A stretch of DNA of 17,240 bases from a virus (Duplodnaviria > Heunggongvirae > Uroviricota > Caudoviricetes): positions 1 to 17,240 of the IMG/VR virus record IMGVR_UViG_2671180674_000015; one strand, 5' to 3'. The notes beneath the pieces are model-generated. The model saw only the letters and a list, made by a program, of their open reading frames with translations, was not told where the DNA came from and did not search any database. Numbering within the stretch: position 1 is the stretch's first letter; every line of letters starts with the position of its first letter. Below are positions 5,455-11,409 of the stretch, piece by piece. The position numbers were made by a program, and so were the translations under genes.

Positions 5455-5595
5455 TCATACTCCTGCTCCTGTCAGGGTTTTGGCGTAACTCTTCAGTATT
5501 CGGTAATCGGTCAAAACAGAACCGGGGAAACGATATAAGCGCAGGCGCACCCAGCGGCGGCGAAGACGTTCTGCCATATAAGACTCAAACATCAT
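5455..5595 (-). CDS. ylcG: Small protein YlcG-like (46 aa), start overlapping the stop of the upstream RusA-derived ORF
   Basis: Reads [46 protein letters not shown], which resembles DLP12 YlcG from memory. Below the ORF-track size cut-off. Confidence 0.55.
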
Positions 5596-6395
5596 TCATC
5601 TCCCAGTTCAGTGATGGTCAGTTCCAGCCTCCCACCTTTGGTAACAGGCATCTTCACAACGCGGTAATCAACGACCTGAGCATCATCCAGCCAGAAACCT
5701 GCTTTGGTGAGTGCGTCAAAAGCGGCCTTTTGCAGATTATCCAGGTCACGGCGACGGCGATCCGGCATGTGGCTACCGCCCATGACAGGAAGTTGTTTTA
5801 CTGGTTCAGGGATCGCCTCACCACGGTTAATTCTCGCAGTCATATGGACAAGCTCATCTGCGGCCTTACGGCGTAATTCCGCATCAGTAAGCGCATTGGC
5901 CCGCATGTTCTGATACAGGTTGGTAACCAGCCAGTAGTGCGCGTTTGATTTCCACGGATAAGACTCCGCATCCGGATACAGGCCTCGCTTCCGGCAATAC
6001 TCGTAAACCATATCAACCAGCTCGCTGACGTTTGGCAGTCCGGCGATAACGGATGCTTCTTCCCGGCACCATGCAACAAACTGCCCGGGTGATGGCAGAA
6101 ATGGTCGATTCTGCCGACGGGCTACGCGCATTCCTGCGTTAACCTGTTCCATTGTGGTGATCCCGTTTTCCCGGAAAGCCAGAACCCACTGGCGGCGGAT
6201 TTCGTTCAGTTCGTTCTGGTCACGGTTAGCCAGACTCGCCGGGAAAGTTGCCAGTAACTGGCTGAACACACCGTTGATGATCTGCGCTACCTGCTGTACC
6301 TGCGGCTTTTCGTCGTACTGTTCCGGCATGTTGTTGGCGATCCGACTCATCTGCTCACGGTCAAAGTTAACCATCTGTGCGGCGATGTTTTTCAT
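5592..6395 (-). CDS. P: Replication protein P (N-terminal ~205 aa) fused in frame to the C-terminal ~60 aa of RusA Holliday-junction resolvase
   Basis: N-terminus [16 protein letters not shown]...[11 protein letters not shown] matches lambda P. The C-terminus [55 protein letters not shown] matches the RusA C-terminus. Junction near 5775. Confidence 0.75.
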
Positions 6396-7291
6396 AGATC
6401 CACCCCGTAAATCCAGTCTGTGTTTGTCAGGTCGAGTTTTGGTTTGCTGGCTGTCACGACTGCCTGTTGCTTGTTACGGTTGATTTCGAGCTGGGTCCAC
6501 TTGTCGCGGAGTTTGGCCGGGCTAAGCACGTTACCGGACCAGAAGTTGTCCTGGCATGCCCAGCGGAACAGCACGCACATGTCGCGGTGGTTACGTCCGT
6601 CACGTTCACGCATCAGGCGGATATCGTTAGCCCACCCTGCAAAATTCGGTTTTCTGGCTGATGGCGCGATGGTCTTCACCATGTCAAACATCCACTCTGC
6701 GGCGGTCAGGTCTTCTGCTGTCCCCCACTTGCTGCCGCTCTGAATTGCAGCATCCGGTTTCACCACAGAAAGGTCGTTTTCTGGCTGGTCAGAGGATTCG
6801 CCAGAATTCTCGGACGAATAATCTTTTCTTTTTTCTTTTGTAATAGTGTCTTTTGTGTCCCCCTGTTTTGAGGGATAGCAATCCCCCAATTTGAGGGATG
6901 TTTTATCCCTCGTTTTAGGGGATTTTCCCTCGTTTTGAGGGATACACCATTCTGAGATGTTTTTATTTGGTCCAAACATGCCGCCTTGCTGCTTGATAAT
7001 ATTCATTCTGACGAGTTCTAACTTGGCTTCATTGCACCGTTTGACAGGTAACTTTGTAATCTCGCTAAGTTGAGAATCGGTGATTCTGTCCATTGGTTTA
7101 TTCCACCCATAGGTTTTACGCAGAATGGCAAGCAGCACTTTAAACTGTCGCTTGGTCAGATCTGCGCCCGAATAAGCCTCAAGCAGCATATTTGATAGTC
7201 TGGCGTAACCATCATCGAGATCTGCCACATTACGCTCCTGTCCGGCAAAGTTACCTCTGCCGAAGTTGAGTATTTTTGCTGTATTTGTCAT
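6392..7291 (-). CDS. O: Replication initiator protein O (lambda-type)
   Basis: 299 aa; stop overlaps the P start (ATGA). Contains the iteron-encoding segment. Strong match to lambda O from memory. Confidence 0.9.
6806..6943. repeat. ori-lambda: four ~19-bp iterons plus adjacent AT-rich region, inside the O gene
   Basis: Direct repeats TCCCCCTGTTTTGAGGGAT, ATCCCCCAATTTGAGGGAT, ATCCCTCGTTTTAGGGGAT, TTCCCTCGTTTTGAGGGAT at 6857-6943, with an A/T tract at 6806-6856. Confidence 0.8.
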
Positions 7292-7301
7292 AATGACTCC
7301 T

Positions 7302-7378
7302 GTTGATAGATCCAGTAATGACCTCAGAACTCCATCTGGATTTGTTCAGAACGCTCGGTTGCCGCCGGGCGTTTTTTA
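7302..7378 (+). ncRNA. oop: OOP antisense RNA (antisense to the cII 3' end) with its intrinsic terminator
   Basis: Plus-strand GTTGATAGATCCAGTAATGACCTCAGAACTCCATCTGGATTTGTTCAGAACGCTCGGTTGCCGCCGGGCGTTTTTT matches my recall of lambda OOP. It overlaps the cII 3' end in antisense and ends in a hairpin plus T-run. Confidence 0.7.
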
Positions 7379-7620
7379 TTGGTGAGTCCATCAAGCGCAT
7401 ACTTAAAAGCCCTGCTAATCGGACTGATGTCTGATGCCATTCCGAAAGCACACAAGACCGAAGCAATAAATCTCCAGTCCGTTCTGCTTATCTTCGATTC
7501 ATGACAGCCAATCATCTTTGCCAGACCGCGCTGGGTAATAGCTGACAGATTGATAAGTAAATCTGTTTCTGCGCGATCAACGTCACGCTGTGATAGTTTG
7601 CTGTAACTTGTTCTTTCCAT
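7324..7620 (-). CDS. cII: CII transcriptional activator (mosaic: heterologous N-terminal part, lambda-like C-terminal tail)
   Basis: 98 aa. C-terminus LTNKKRPAATERSEQIQMEF matches lambda CII; the HTH region differs from lambda. Lies between cro and O. Confidence 0.75.
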   Translation of the reverse strand: MERTSYSKLSQRDVDRAETDLLINLSAITQRGLAKMIGCHESKISRTDWRFIASVLCAFGMASDISPISRAFKYALDGLTNKKRPAATERSEQIQMEF

Positions 7621-7705
7621 TTCTTAAGATTTCCAATAGTGAATAGTTAGTTGAAAGGTATGCGTGGAAACGCATATGGCCTTAGTTGGTCAGATATCTT
7701 GGAAC

Positions 7706-7761: not shown

Positions 7762-7977
7762 TTAAGCGGCTTTGTGTTCCGGCGGGAACACGTCATCAAG
7801 ACTGACTTTTGCGCCTAACTTGTTTAGGCACGCAACAAGAGCACGGCATGTTTTAAGGTCTGGGAAGCGACGACCAGATTCCCAATGTCCGATAGCTCCC
7901 TGTGTGCATCCAACTGCCTTAGCAAGTGTTGTTTGAGAGATATTCAGTGACTCTCGATATTTTCGTAGGTTGCTCAT
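7762..7977 (-). CDS. cro: Cro-like HTH repressor (71 aa)
   Basis: ATG at 7977 preceded by GGAGGG. HTH segment QTTLAKAVGCTQGAIGHWESGRR. Divergent from cI across the operator region. The track's longer form overlaps the operators and was not used. Confidence 0.7.
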   Translation of the reverse strand: MSNLRKYRESLNISQTTLAKAVGCTQGAIGHWESGRRFPDLKTCRALVACLNKLGAKVSLDDVFPPEHKAA

Positions 7978-8088
7978 ATGCCCTCCATAGTAAACACGAA
8001 TAAAAAAATACAATATGTACTTTACGAATACAAGTAAAAATACATATTGTGCATGGATGGTTCCAGTACAAAGCGTAATAATAAGGAC
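7978..8088. promoter_or_regulatory. Divergent OR/PR/PRM region with three operator-like sites
   Basis: Sites at 8011-8022 (ACAATATGTACT), 8041-8052 (ATACATATTGTG) and 8066-8080 (AGTACAAAGCGTAAT) resemble the OL palindrome AGTACATATCGTACT. A -10-like TAATAT at 8077-8082 places a PRM start at about the cI ATG (leaderless). Confidence 0.5.
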
Positions 8089-8748
8089 ATGAAAATGAAA
8101 TGGTATGAACTGGCTAGATCCAGAATGAAAGAGCTCGGCATAACTCAAGAGAAGTTAGCCGAAGAACTAGGTATGACGCAGGGTGGGATTGGACACTGGT
8201 TGCGCGGATCTCGTCATCCATCTCTTAGTGATATTGGTGTGGTGTTTAAATACCTTGGTATTGATAACATATCATTCAACCACGACGGGACATTTTCACC
8301 TGTTGGCGAATACTCATCGGCCCCAGTTAAAAAACAATATGAGTACCCTGTTTTTTCTCATGTTCAGGCTGGGATGTTCTCTCCAGAACTCAGAACCTTT
8401 ACCAAAGGCGATGCGGAGAGATTGGTAAGCACAACCAAAAAAGCCAGTGACTCTGCATTCTGGCTTGAGGTTGAAGGTAACTCAATGACCGCACCAACAG
8501 GTTCCAAGCCCAGCTTTCCTGACGGGATGTTAATTCTGGTTGACCCTGAGCAGGCTGTTGAGCCAGGCGATTTCTGTATAGCCAGACTTGGTGGTGATGA
8601 GTTTACCTTCAAGAAACTGATCAGGGATAGCGGTCAGGTGTTTCTACAGCCACTAAACCCACAATACCCAATGATCCCATGCAATGAGAGTTGTTCCGTT
8701 GTGGGGAAAGTTATCGCTAGTCAGTGGCCTGAAGAGACGTTTGGGTGA
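8089..8748 (+). CDS. cI: CI prophage repressor, chimeric: heterologous N-terminal HTH domain with lambda-like linker and S24 autocleavage C-terminal domain
   Basis: From [17 protein letters not shown] through the C-terminal ...[12 protein letters not shown] it matches lambda CI (Ala-Gly cleavage site, Ser in GNSM, Lys in KKL). The N-terminal [24 protein letters not shown] is not lambda-like. ATG at 8089 (or 8095). Confidence 0.85.
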
Positions 8749-8794: not shown

Positions 8795-9337
8795 GTGGCT
8801 AAAAAAGGCGACTTTAAGCCTACCCAGAAAGAGGTTGACCAAGCTATTACTCGCTTGAAAAAAGTAACTTTTAGCGGAGTTACATGGACCGGAAGTGAGG
8901 GACGAACCCCAATCTGGTTTAAATTGGATCTCAAAGCTTTTGATGAAATTGGCAACCCAATCACAGGCATAAGATTTATGCTTCACTGGCGTCCTCCTAT
9001 CGTTGAAGGGGTGGATATAGTGAAGATTTCATTTGTGATGTTTCTTCATGACAGGCGCATTTACGCGCTTGACCCGTACCCTGCGGATAACAAGCCACAC
9101 CGTAATAAATCTATAGTGAACCATCCAGATTTTGTTGAGGTGGCTCGAGGTCCTCACTATCACATGTACTTCGAATCAGCTGGGGAAGAAATTGCACTTA
9201 AGCTTGAAACGAACATCAAGCCAGATGATTTTTTTGGCTACTGGAATTATTTTTGCGAGGCGCTTAATATCATATATGAAGGCAGCCCACCTTTACCTAA
9301 TCAAGATAAATCAGGTCAGCTATCATGGGAAATGTAA
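8795..9337 (+). CDS. Hypothetical protein (180 aa), first gene of an unknown two-gene cassette in the rexA/rexB position
   Basis: ORF opens with GTG at 8795, 46 nt after the cI stop and with no intervening terminator. No motif I recognise. 3' end overlaps the next ORF by 13 nt. Confidence 0.55.
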   Translation: MAKKGDFKPTQKEVDQAITRLKKVTFSGVTWTGSEGRTPIWFKLDLKAFDEIGNPITGIRFMLHWRPPIVEGVDIVKISFVMFLHDRRIYALDPYPADNKPHRNKSIVNHPDFVEVARGPHYHMYFESAGEEIALKLETNIKPDDFFGYWNYFCEALNIIYEGSPPLPNQDKSGQLSWEM

Positions 9338-10101
9338 CGTGTTCAACAGTCATATCTAAGCTCGGGTTTGAATGCCACCCAATGAGCGACACGTTGCTGC
9401 GCGTTATTAGTCCCTTCACATACTACGATGATTGTGAGCAGATAAGTGTATTCGTTCAAGAGATGGGTGGTCAGTATAGGGTTACAGACTACTGCGATAC
9501 ATTGATGAATATTGAATCACGCGGCATCCACCTGACTAAAAAGAAAATTGATCTGATCAGGTCATCACTCGCTTCGCAAGGAATTTCATTAAATGACTCT
9601 GGAGAGATATCTGCGTGGGCAGATGAGTCGTCCGTTGGACAGGTAACTGCAAATGTTATTCGTGGTGGGATTCTTGCATCCGCCCAAACTGCTGATTGGT
9701 ATGCTGAGGTCAAAGACGATAAGTTCGAAAAATGTGTAATCAGTTACTTAAAATCAGCAGGGCTTGGGAAGCGACTAGCCTTAAAGGAAAAAGTGAAAGG
9801 TATTAGTGGGCATAACATTACTGTTCCGTTAACGCTAAGGAATGAGTCTCGACTAATACCACCAAAACGCGGGTTTACGGTAAGCCTTGCCAGCAGTAAG
9901 GGATGGAATACTGCCCACTCAACAGTTGGGAAGATTGTTGACTTAAGTCAGGTCGTTCCTGACATAAACAATAGATTTGTAATAGTTGACAGCGATGGGT
10001 TAACACCTGAGCTACAGCAACTATCACTACTATTTAATGATACCGCACGAGTGTTGCCATTCCATACCAGAGACTCTTGGATTGAGTCTCTGGTAGCCTA
10101 G
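9325..10101 (+). CDS. Hypothetical protein (258 aa from ATG 9325; alternative ATG 9382), second gene of the cassette
   Basis: Long ORF overlapping the upstream ORF's stop, followed directly by a strong terminator. No recognised catalytic motif. Confidence 0.55.
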   Translation: MGNVTCSTVISKLGFECHPMSDTLLRVISPFTYYDDCEQISVFVQEMGGQYRVTDYCDTLMNIESRGIHLTKKKIDLIRSSLASQGISLNDSGEISAWADESSVGQVTANVIRGGILASAQTADWYAEVKDDKFEKCVISYLKSAGLGKRLALKEKVKGISGHNITVPLTLRNESRLIPPKRGFTVSLASSKGWNTAHSTVGKIVDLSQVVPDINNRFVIVDSDGLTPELQQLSLLFNDTARVLPFHTRDSWIESLVA

Positions 10102-10133: not shown

Positions 10134-10305
10134 CCTCACGATCGCCCCACCTAAAAACACATAACCAATTGTATTTATTGAAAAATAAATAGATGCAACC
10201 CACTAAACCACGCAATTCTGATCTCTCCTTACATCGCCGAGGCAATACATCCACGCTAAAAAACAACACTATTAAATACAAAGCGTTATAAAAAACCACG
10301 CCAAC

Positions 10306-10356
10306 TTACAACAAATTGTATTGATCTTGTAAAGTACATATCGTACTATTTAACCG
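10306..10356 (+). promoter_or_regulatory. PL promoter with OL operator(s)
   Basis: -35 TTGATC (10321-10326), 17-nt spacer, -10 TACTAT (10344-10349). Palindromic operator AGTACATATCGTACT (10333-10347) overlaps the spacer and -10; a second related site is at 10311-10322. Confidence 0.5.
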
Positions 10357-10394: not shown

Positions 10395-10440
10395 GGCTCT
10401 TTAAACAACGTCGACTCTCGACTACGTGGCTGAAAAGCCA
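10395..10440 (+). promoter_or_regulatory. Putative nutL (boxA GGCTCTTTAAACAA, intervening hairpin GTCGA-ctc-TCGAC, boxB TGGCT-GAAA-AGCCA)
   Basis: BoxA-like sequence about 40 nt downstream of the predicted PL start, then a 5-bp stem with GAAA loop. Architecture parallels the nutR candidate. Confidence 0.45.
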
Positions 10441-10538: not shown

Positions 10539-10811
10539 ATGTCCAGAAAAACAGAATTTAAAGGCACCGCAGCTTCTCGCCGTAGAGCTCGTCGCGCAAA
10601 TCTGCAAAGTCAGGAGGCGATCAGCTCCGACAAGCTACACAGGCCAACCCCTTCACGAGTGGTCTTGCAATGCAAGCGCAAACCAGCAATGAGAGCAGAA
10701 GTGATAACTCTGACAACGTTGACCAGAAAATATGAAGGTTCAACTTGTCTTCCGAACGTAGCTCTTTACGCGGCAGGCTACCGGAAATCAAAACAACTGA
10801 CGGCGAGATGA
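10539..10811 (+). CDS. N: N-type transcription antiterminator (arginine-rich motif; P22 gene 24-like C-terminus)
   Basis: 90 aa from ATG 10539 with RBS GGGAGGA. N-terminal ARM GTAASRRRARRA; C-terminal ...LPNVALYAAGYRKSKQLTAR. First gene downstream of PL and nutL. Confidence 0.75.
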   Translation: MSRKTEFKGTAASRRRARRANLQSQEAISSDKLHRPTPSRVVLQCKRKPAMRAEVITLTTLTRKYEGSTCLPNVALYAAGYRKSKQLTAR

Positions 10812-10827
10812 TAAATTCATTTGCTAA

Positions 10828-11409
10828 TTACTTGTTTTTGCCATGCTTATCCTGAGCGATAAGTTCATCCATAAGGCTGTCTGCCTTCCCGGCAAACCGA
10901 ATGTAGCACTCATTTCTATAGCGTTCCGGGATAACAAAACGGTCGATTTCAGGATATCCAGTAGCAGAAGGTATCCGAATAAGAAGCCCTTTTTCGAGCA
11001 ATGAGATTGCTTCAGGGCTTCCCTTTTCTGTCTTTAGCTGGTTATTCGCGGCTACAGCGAATGCCAAATACGCTCTTTCTCCAAGAGTTAACGAATCAAA
11101 CAAATCTTGCACATATTTTTCTTCTTTAGATTTGCGCTTCTGAGCAGCGGATACCTCAATTCTTTCAGTCACAGCGTGATAAGCGGAATTAACAACACCG
11201 TTAAGCACATAGCTAACGCAGAACAACAGGATGTAATACATCCAATAATAAGGAAGGATTTCTGGATTATGCAGGTTTATCCATTCTTTTACGCTTACCG
11301 GCATAACAATAATCAATATGATCAGGATGATTAGCATATGAATCAACTGTTTAAGTGTCATTCCTTGCAGGAAAAAATGCATTAGTTCCTGCCACCATGA
11401 GTTGTTCAT
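10828..11409 (-). CDS. sieB: Superinfection exclusion protein B (SieB)-like membrane protein
   Basis: 193 aa, hydrophobic N-terminal segment LIHMLIILIILIIVMPV. Convergent with and directly abutting N, as lambda sieB is. Confidence 0.7.
   Translation of the reverse strand: MNNSWWQELMHFFLQGMTLKQLIHMLIILIILIIVMPVSVKEWINLHNPEILPYYWMYYILLFCVSYVLNGVVNSAYHAVTERIEVSAAQKRKSKEEKYVQDLFDSLTLGERAYLAFAVAANNQLKTEKGSPEAISLLEKGLLIRIPSATGYPEIDRFVIPERYRNECYIRFAGKADSLMDELIAQDKHGKNK

Follow-up and report, generated by a model that had tools for sequence, protein, structure and literature searches.

Predicted OR and OL operators of a lambdoid prophage carrying the VT2-Sakai (Sp5) immunity module

Which regulatory sites lie in the gap between the divergent cro and cI genes of this prophage, and which immunity type do they define? 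The window, by which we mean the whole stretch of 17,240 nt that was analyzed, represents the early region of a lambdoid prophage in the orientation opposite to the usual lambda map. P, O, cII, cro, cI, the cargo genes, N and sieB are all assigned without ambiguity by Pfam and PHROG, and the order is cII-cro-OR-cI-cargo-OL-N. P (5595-6395), O (6395-7291), cII (7327-7620) and cro (7765-7977) locate on the minus strand. On the plus strand, cI (8089-8748) is followed by two cargo genes (8795-9337 and 9325-10101) between cI and OL and by the N antiterminator gene (10539-10811), after which sieB (10831-11409) returns to the minus strand. As in a lambdoid switch, cro and cI diverge from a gap of 111 bp, where a reading made from the sequence alone (hereafter the sequence-only reading) had placed its repressor sites, and sites of the OR type recur in OL, beside PL and upstream of N. 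We are confident that six such sites make up the OR and OL operator sets of a lambdoid prophage carrying the immunity module of VT2-Sakai (Sp5) and of the Stx1 phage AP005153. This operator reading is supported by sequence, conservation and homology.

The word AGTACATATCGTACT, which the sequence-only reading had reported in OL, is present at 10333-10347 on the plus strand. With up to three mismatches allowed, it is found elsewhere in the 17,240-nt window only at 8007-8021 (minus strand, two mismatches) and 8065-8079 (plus strand, three mismatches). These three matches compare with 0.26 expected. In a seed-free comparison, the cro-cI gap and the gap upstream of N have in common 14 pairs of 15-mers with at most two mismatches, which bears out the proposed operator family common to OR and OL. 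Random segment pairs of equal sizes from the same window (n = 936) share 0.12 such pairs on average and 5 at most. On the other hand, the word is not the perfect palindrome it had been taken for. The reverse complement reads AGTACGATATGTACT; symmetry is confined to the arms AGTAC/GTACT and does not extend to the center ATATC. Extended to a 17-mer, the word is symmetric at 5 of 8 pairs.

The family consists of six members of 17 bp, restricted to the cro-cI gap and the region upstream of N. We searched the window, as the sequence-only reading had suggested, with a symmetric matrix built from the six sites themselves, and for this matrix the six predicted operators occupy ranks 1 to 6 of the 17,224 positions scored. 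When each site is left out of its own matrix in turn, the ranks become 1, 8, 6, 2, 6 and 6, so that every site still stands eighth or better of 17,224. The site is an imperfect inverted repeat, in which the half-site a-A-r-T-A-C-A-w flanks a central base. Among the 12 half-sites, A5 and C6 are found in all, A2 in 11, and T4 and A7 in 9; the constrained positions are A2, T4, A5 and C6. Both regions are A+T rich, and a single site is symmetric at merely 3 to 6 of its 8 pairs, as might be seen in a chance cluster of similar A+T-rich words in two such intergenic regions. We give that explanation next to no credence, and it is already refuted: none of 200 dinucleotide-preserving shuffles reaches the three matches of AGTACATATCGTACT, none of the 936 random segment pairs reaches 14, simulated windows yield 0.05 sites scoring as high as the weakest true one, and the conservation pattern in relatives also speaks against it.

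For conservation, we compared 119 related IMG/VR viral contigs, retrieved with a 20-nt word from the 5' end of cI, which comprise 51 distinct OR and 71 distinct OL sequences. Columns with an entropy above 0.3 bit were counted as variable. Only 15 of the 102 columns in the six operators are variable, compared with 24 of the 37 columns in the intervening spacers (Fisher p = 2.7e-8). Moreover, the variable operator columns occur only at positions 1/17, 3/15, 7/11, 8 and 9, and never at 2, 4, 5, 6 or their mirrors. This pattern is the one that contact by a dimeric helix-turn-helix protein would predict.

In the OR region, predicted OR1 (8006-8022, minus strand, AAGTACATATTGTATTT) has the highest matrix score, 21.3, and ranks first even when left out of the matrix. 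Its variation is confined to positions 1, 11 and 17 among the 51 distinct relatives and the window. OR1 covers the spacer and the -10 of a PR candidate (8005-8033, minus strand), which has a -35 of TTGTAT (8033-8028), a 17-bp spacer and a -10 of TATTTT (8010-8005). This candidate would start near 7997-7999 and drive cro. In most relatives its -10 is TATTAT, a 5/6 match.

Predicted OR2 (8038-8054, plus strand, AAATACATATTGTGCAT, matrix score 15.4) is the weakest of the six by the leave-one-out measure, with a score of 8.4 and rank 8, and varies among relatives at the central positions 8 and 9 only. It abuts the -35 of PRM, and its center at 8046 lies 43 bp upstream of A8089. Predicted OR3 (8064-8080, plus strand, CAGTACAAAGCGTAATA, matrix score 16.9) reaches over the PRM spacer into the first 4 bp of the -10. 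It varies among relatives at positions 1, 3 and 8, and is nearest to OL3, with two mismatches in 15. Within OR, the matrix places OR1 above OR3 and OR2. The three OR sites of the sequence-only reading all fall inside these real sites, although the first two had been given as 12 nt and the full sites span 17 bp.

The PRM candidate (8054-8082, plus strand) has a -35 of TGGATG (8054-8059), a 17-bp spacer and a -10 of AATAAT (8077-8082), and none of its 12 hexamer positions varies in 52 distinct sequences. A TAATAT hexamer had been put forward as this -10. It is absent from both strands of 7950-8110, where the sequence reads GTAATAATAAGG, and AATAAT is the likely -10 instead. Counting from this -10, transcription would begin at A8089, the seventh base downstream and the A of the first cI ATG, so that a leaderless PRM transcript of cI is plausible. 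To this extent the leaderless transcript suggested earlier stands, though from another hexamer than the one quoted.

In the OL region, predicted OL1 (10332-10348, plus strand, AAGTACATATCGTACTA) contains AGTACATATCGTACT and scores 20.1, rank 2. It shows appreciable variation only at position 8 among 71 distinct relatives and the window. OL1 covers the spacer and the -10 of a PL candidate (10322-10350, plus strand), which consists of a -35 of TTGATC (10322-10327), a 17-bp spacer and a -10 of TACTAT (10345-10350), and which would start near 10356. Among relatives, the -35 is mostly TTGACC or TTGACT, the -10 is invariant, and 10356 is always a purine. Predicted OL2 (10307-10323, plus strand, TACAACAAATTGTATTG, matrix score 16.5) overlaps the first 2 bp of the PL -35 and varies in relatives at positions 3, 8, 9 and 11. 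Predicted OL3 (10274-10290, plus strand, AAATACAAAGCGTTATA, matrix score 15.4) is located upstream of PL, clear of any promoter hexamer, and is kept even in relatives with unrelated sequence further upstream. The sequence-only reading had recognized the overlap of 10333-10347 with the PL -10 and had missed OL2 and OL3.

All three promoters were read by hand. An automatic promoter scan called none of PR, PRM and PL, each falling under its threshold: PR because its -35 matches only 3/6, and PL because its hexamers match 8/12. For PRM this is expected, since the promoter should depend on an activator. These best hexamer candidates, all below the scan threshold, overlap the predicted operators in the lambda pattern and are conserved.

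The same overlap raises the question of whether the blocks are conserved merely as elements of PR, PRM and PL rather than as repressor-binding sites. OR1, OR3, OL1 and OL2 do overlap promoter hexamers, and the similarity between OR1 and OL1 runs on into the promoter spacer GTAAAGTAC. Nevertheless, OL3 lies outside the hexamers, as does most of OR2 (8038-8053), and both are conserved like the other sites. The dyad symmetry, with A5 and C6 present in every half-site, is not needed by promoters. Meanwhile, the -35 hexamers vary among relatives (at 8030 and 10325-10327), whereas the TAC cores do not. We consider a purely promoter-based conservation very improbable and read the blocks as operators.

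The centers of the operators are 32 bp apart for OR1-OR2, 26 bp for OR2-OR3, 25 bp for OL1-OL2 and 33 bp for OL2-OL3, and OR2 is 2,269 bp from OL2. The OR1-OR2 spacing differs between contigs, being 31 bp in 1, 32 bp in 44, 33 bp in 66, 34 bp in 7 and 35 bp in 1. All indels fall in the A-run between the PR -35 and OR2 (8034-8037 in the window), which is polymorphic in length, so that OR1-OR2 ranges from 31 to 35 bp and is mostly 32 or 33 bp. All other operator spacings are fixed or nearly so: OR2-OR3 is 26 bp in 119/119 contigs, and OL1-OL2 is 25 bp in the 105/105 that were scored. No matrix match was found for a nearer partner of OR1 at the lambda-like spacing of 24 bp, either as a fourth OR site or as another register of OR2.

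Two further candidates were rejected. An inverted repeat in the OR1-OR2 spacer, TTTAC-N8-GTAAA (8021-8038), was discounted as a functional element, since its left arm varies freely among relatives. The seventh-best matrix match (10160-10176, CATAACCAATTGTATTT, score 11.7) is positioned about 100 bp upstream of OL3, directly past the cargo terminator. We dismissed it as an operator and regard it as probably a chance match or a remnant, because the conserved OL block does not include it and some relatives carry mutations in its TGTA core.

The start of cI deserves attention. GenBank and PGAP place it at the upstream ATG 8053, a codon inside OR2 and the PRM -35. In 7 of the 119 related contigs, the frame from ATG 8053 contains a TAG at the equivalent of 8071-8073. 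This makes it very likely that cI has been annotated from the wrong codon and really begins at ATG 8089 or ATG 8095. The sequence AAGGA at 8083-8087 is well placed solely for the second of these, ATG 8095. The analysis corrects in this way the cI start codon used in database annotations.

Translated from ATG 8089, CI has 219 residues (217 from ATG 8095) with the Pfam domains HTH_3 and Peptidase_S24. Residues 84-219 are almost identical to the C-terminal domain of lambda CI (PDB 3bdn, 8gmu), and over 8338-8748 the gene shares 95% DNA identity with lambda cI. CI has the Ala-Gly cleavage site (VQAGMF), together with the GNSM serine and the FKKL lysine. In contrast, the N-terminal domain is only weakly similar to that of lambda (E = 0.0024 for the domain alone). 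Since the C-terminal domain is nearly lambda's and these residues are present, the repressor is a natural mosaic, in which a distinct DNA-binding domain is joined to the lambda domain for dimerization, cooperativity, looping and RecA-dependent cleavage. Cro, of 71 residues, is an all-alpha HTH_3 protein that is 35% identical to the N-terminal domain of CI. Both proteins carry the recognition-helix motif TQGxIGHW, which fits a reading of the same sites by CI and Cro.

Comparison with known phages indicates that this module already has a name. In the Stx1-converting phage AP005153, CI (219/219 residues) and Cro (71/71 residues) are identical to those of the window. Its GenBank record annotates three putative 17-bp operators in OR and three in OL at the places equivalent to those in the window, as well as rightward, maintenance and leftward promoters that map onto PR, PRM and PL. 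The cI DNA of the window is 97.6% identical to that of AP005153, and equally to that of Sakai-type PA phages. The immunity region is common to VT2-Sakai (Sp5), AP005153, the Stx2 II phage AP005154, and the PST1 Stx2a phages (PA4 and others). Table S5 of Yin et al. 2015 (PMC4587872) lists the same six operators for PST1 phages, with the OR and OL labels swapped relative to the gene order. With reference to Fattah et al. 2000, the paper describes the operators as the "same as operator sequences in E. coli O157:H7 Sakai".

Relative to this table, two operators of the window are exact and four have one base changed. The window differs from the Sakai type by T for C at 8045 in OR2, A for G at 8071 in OR3, A for G at 10288 in OL3 and C for G at 10309 in OL2. 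In addition, its PL -35 is TTGATC, compared with TTGACC in the Sakai type. From the identity of CI and Cro and from the six operators, we assign the window to the imm(VT2-Sakai/Sp5) type. The suggestion that the motif defines the immunity specificity of the prophage is right on these grounds, for a type that had already been named. The operator set is already known, because it is annotated in AP005153 and has been published, as predicted sites, for an identical repressor. The sequence-only reading is partly confirmed: it holds in substance, with three details wrong (the palindrome, TAATAT, and the missed OL2 and OL3), and its interpretation is supported and not new.

The prophage also differs from the Sakai-type phages outside the immunity region. 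It contains no stx gene within the window, unlike Stx phages, and carries a 2.3-kb deletion between P and rusA. At breakpoint 5773, within P (5595-6395), the related contigs L116, L110, L083 and L012 are about 2.3 kb longer. The deletion fuses P to the C-terminal part of rusA, and the nin region is gone. By Pfam, the fusion product comprises Phage_lambda_P at residues 38-198 and RusA at residues 207-261. The prophage of the window is probably replication-defective.

The cargo between cI and OL differs from that of Sakai-type phages as well. The two genes at 8795-10101 overlap each other and occupy the slot of rexAB in lambda. They match DUF6978 (weakly, below the Pfam cutoff) and DUF1828, belong to PHROGs 2017 and 1960 of unknown function, and weakly match A and B of the PADLOC candidate defence system PDC-M24. 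A megablast search of the cargo region against 50,697 phage records gave no match. In 58 of 107 related contigs, OL directly follows cI and the cargo is missing.

We notice two further elements of the early region. A PRE candidate is seen on the cI strand in the 5' end of cII, where TTGC-N6-TTGT (7598-7611) is followed at the right distance by TAAGAT (7625-7630); this element is a candidate for dependence on cII. In 32 related contigs, lambda's own PRE sequence is found instead, so that different cII modules have been joined to the Sakai-type immunity cassette. In the N leader, a nutL-like element at 10396-10422 consists of the boxA-like GCTCTTTAA followed by the boxB-like hairpin GTCGACTCTCGAC. 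A terminator scan flagged this hairpin on the opposite strand.

Comparing the module with the lambda switch, we observe the same architecture. Three 17-bp pseudo-symmetric operators are found in each of OR and OL, around divergent cro and cI. OR2 is centered 43 bp from the cI ATG in the window and 42 bp in lambda, with cI probably leaderless, and OR3 lies over the PRM -10 in both. The distance between OL and OR is about 2.3 kb in each (2,269 bp in the window, 2,359 bp in lambda), and the C-terminal domain of CI is almost lambda's in protein and 95% identical in DNA. The differences concern recognition and spacing. The half-site is AArTACA in the window and TATCACCG in lambda; Cro is an all-alpha HTH_3 protein outside the lambda Cro fold family by sequence; and the spacings of 32, 26, 25 and 33 bp correspond to 24, 23, 24 and 20 bp in lambda.

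Among other Stx phages, 933W and BAA2326 (Koudelka laboratory) likewise have lambdoid switches with three OR sites and serve as experimentally characterized comparators (PMC3317979, PMC5977221). Their immunity type differs from that of the window: the CI proteins of Sp5 and 933W are 19.1% identical (bioRxiv 10.1101/2024.03.06.583675), and 933W has only two OL sites (PMC8065619), compared with three in the module of the window. For the Sakai type itself, our literature search returned no report of cognate CI or Cro binding to the six sites or of transcript starts, and searching for the operators by their exact sequence brought up no paper. A single EMSA came to light, in which lambda CI bound VT2-Sakai sites with micromolar affinity (PMC10742460); that paper's summary of Fattah et al. 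describes the C-terminus of VT2-Sakai CI as lambda-like.

A lambda-style switch appears to be the best model for this locus, because the C-terminal domain of CI is almost identical to that of lambda. From this near-identity, lambda-like dimerization, pairwise cooperativity, looping between OL and OR, and RecA-stimulated self-cleavage at Ala-Gly would be expected. From the operators, promoters and proteins described above, we infer binding, the order of occupancy, activation, cooperativity and the transcription starts as follows. CI dimers would bind through the HTH_3 N-terminal domain. On OR1 and OL1, CI would mask the spacer and -10 of both PR and PL, switching off cro and N. On OR2, 43 bp upstream of the cI start, it may activate the weak PRM in the manner of lambda, and at high concentration CI on OR3 would cover the PRM -10 and limit its own synthesis. 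Cro, with its near-identical recognition helix, is expected on the same sites and would turn PRM off. Cleavage of CI upon SOS induction would release the switch.

One element of this scheme is less certain. With OR1 and OR2 separated by 32 bp (31-35 bp in relatives), compared with 24 bp in lambda, lambda-like cooperativity between them is not assured. The sites may be true CI and Cro operators wired differently from those of lambda, with the long and variable OR1-OR2 spacer preventing cooperativity of this pair. The cooperative pairs would then be OR2-OR3 and OL1-OL2, or the switch would rely on looping between OL and OR only. The spacings lend some weight to such wiring: OR1-OR2 varies from 31 to 35 bp, with all indels in the A-run between the PR -35 and OR2, while OR2-OR3 and OL1-OL2 are fixed at 26 and 25 bp, and the lambda values are 24, 23, 24 and 20 bp. 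However, 32-33 bp corresponds to about three helical turns, so OR1 and OR2 lie on the same face of the helix, and lambda CI, whose linker is flexible, can cooperate across integral turns. In the matrix ranking, too, OR1 stands above OR3 and OR2, as in lambda, and cooperative filling of OR2 and OR3 would shut PRM upon activation. We regard a pairing other than lambda's, or a reliance on OL-OR looping, as unlikely for the Sakai-type switch, though clearly less so than the promoter-only reading of the blocks, and retain the lambda-style switch as the model.

The finding adds nothing new on the workings of phage switches. It places the prophage in an immunity group that has a name and is very common, the cro-OR-cI module being present at a coverage of at least 80% in 776 of 5,426 complete E. 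coli genomes. On this assignment, the prophage should be homoimmune with Stx phages of the Sp5 (VT2-Sakai) type. Whether a lambda-type cooperativity domain can act across an OR1-OR2 spacing of 32-33 bp bears on differences in spontaneous induction among Stx prophages; an altered cooperative pairing, if true, could affect the rate at which Sp5-type Stx phages are spontaneously induced.
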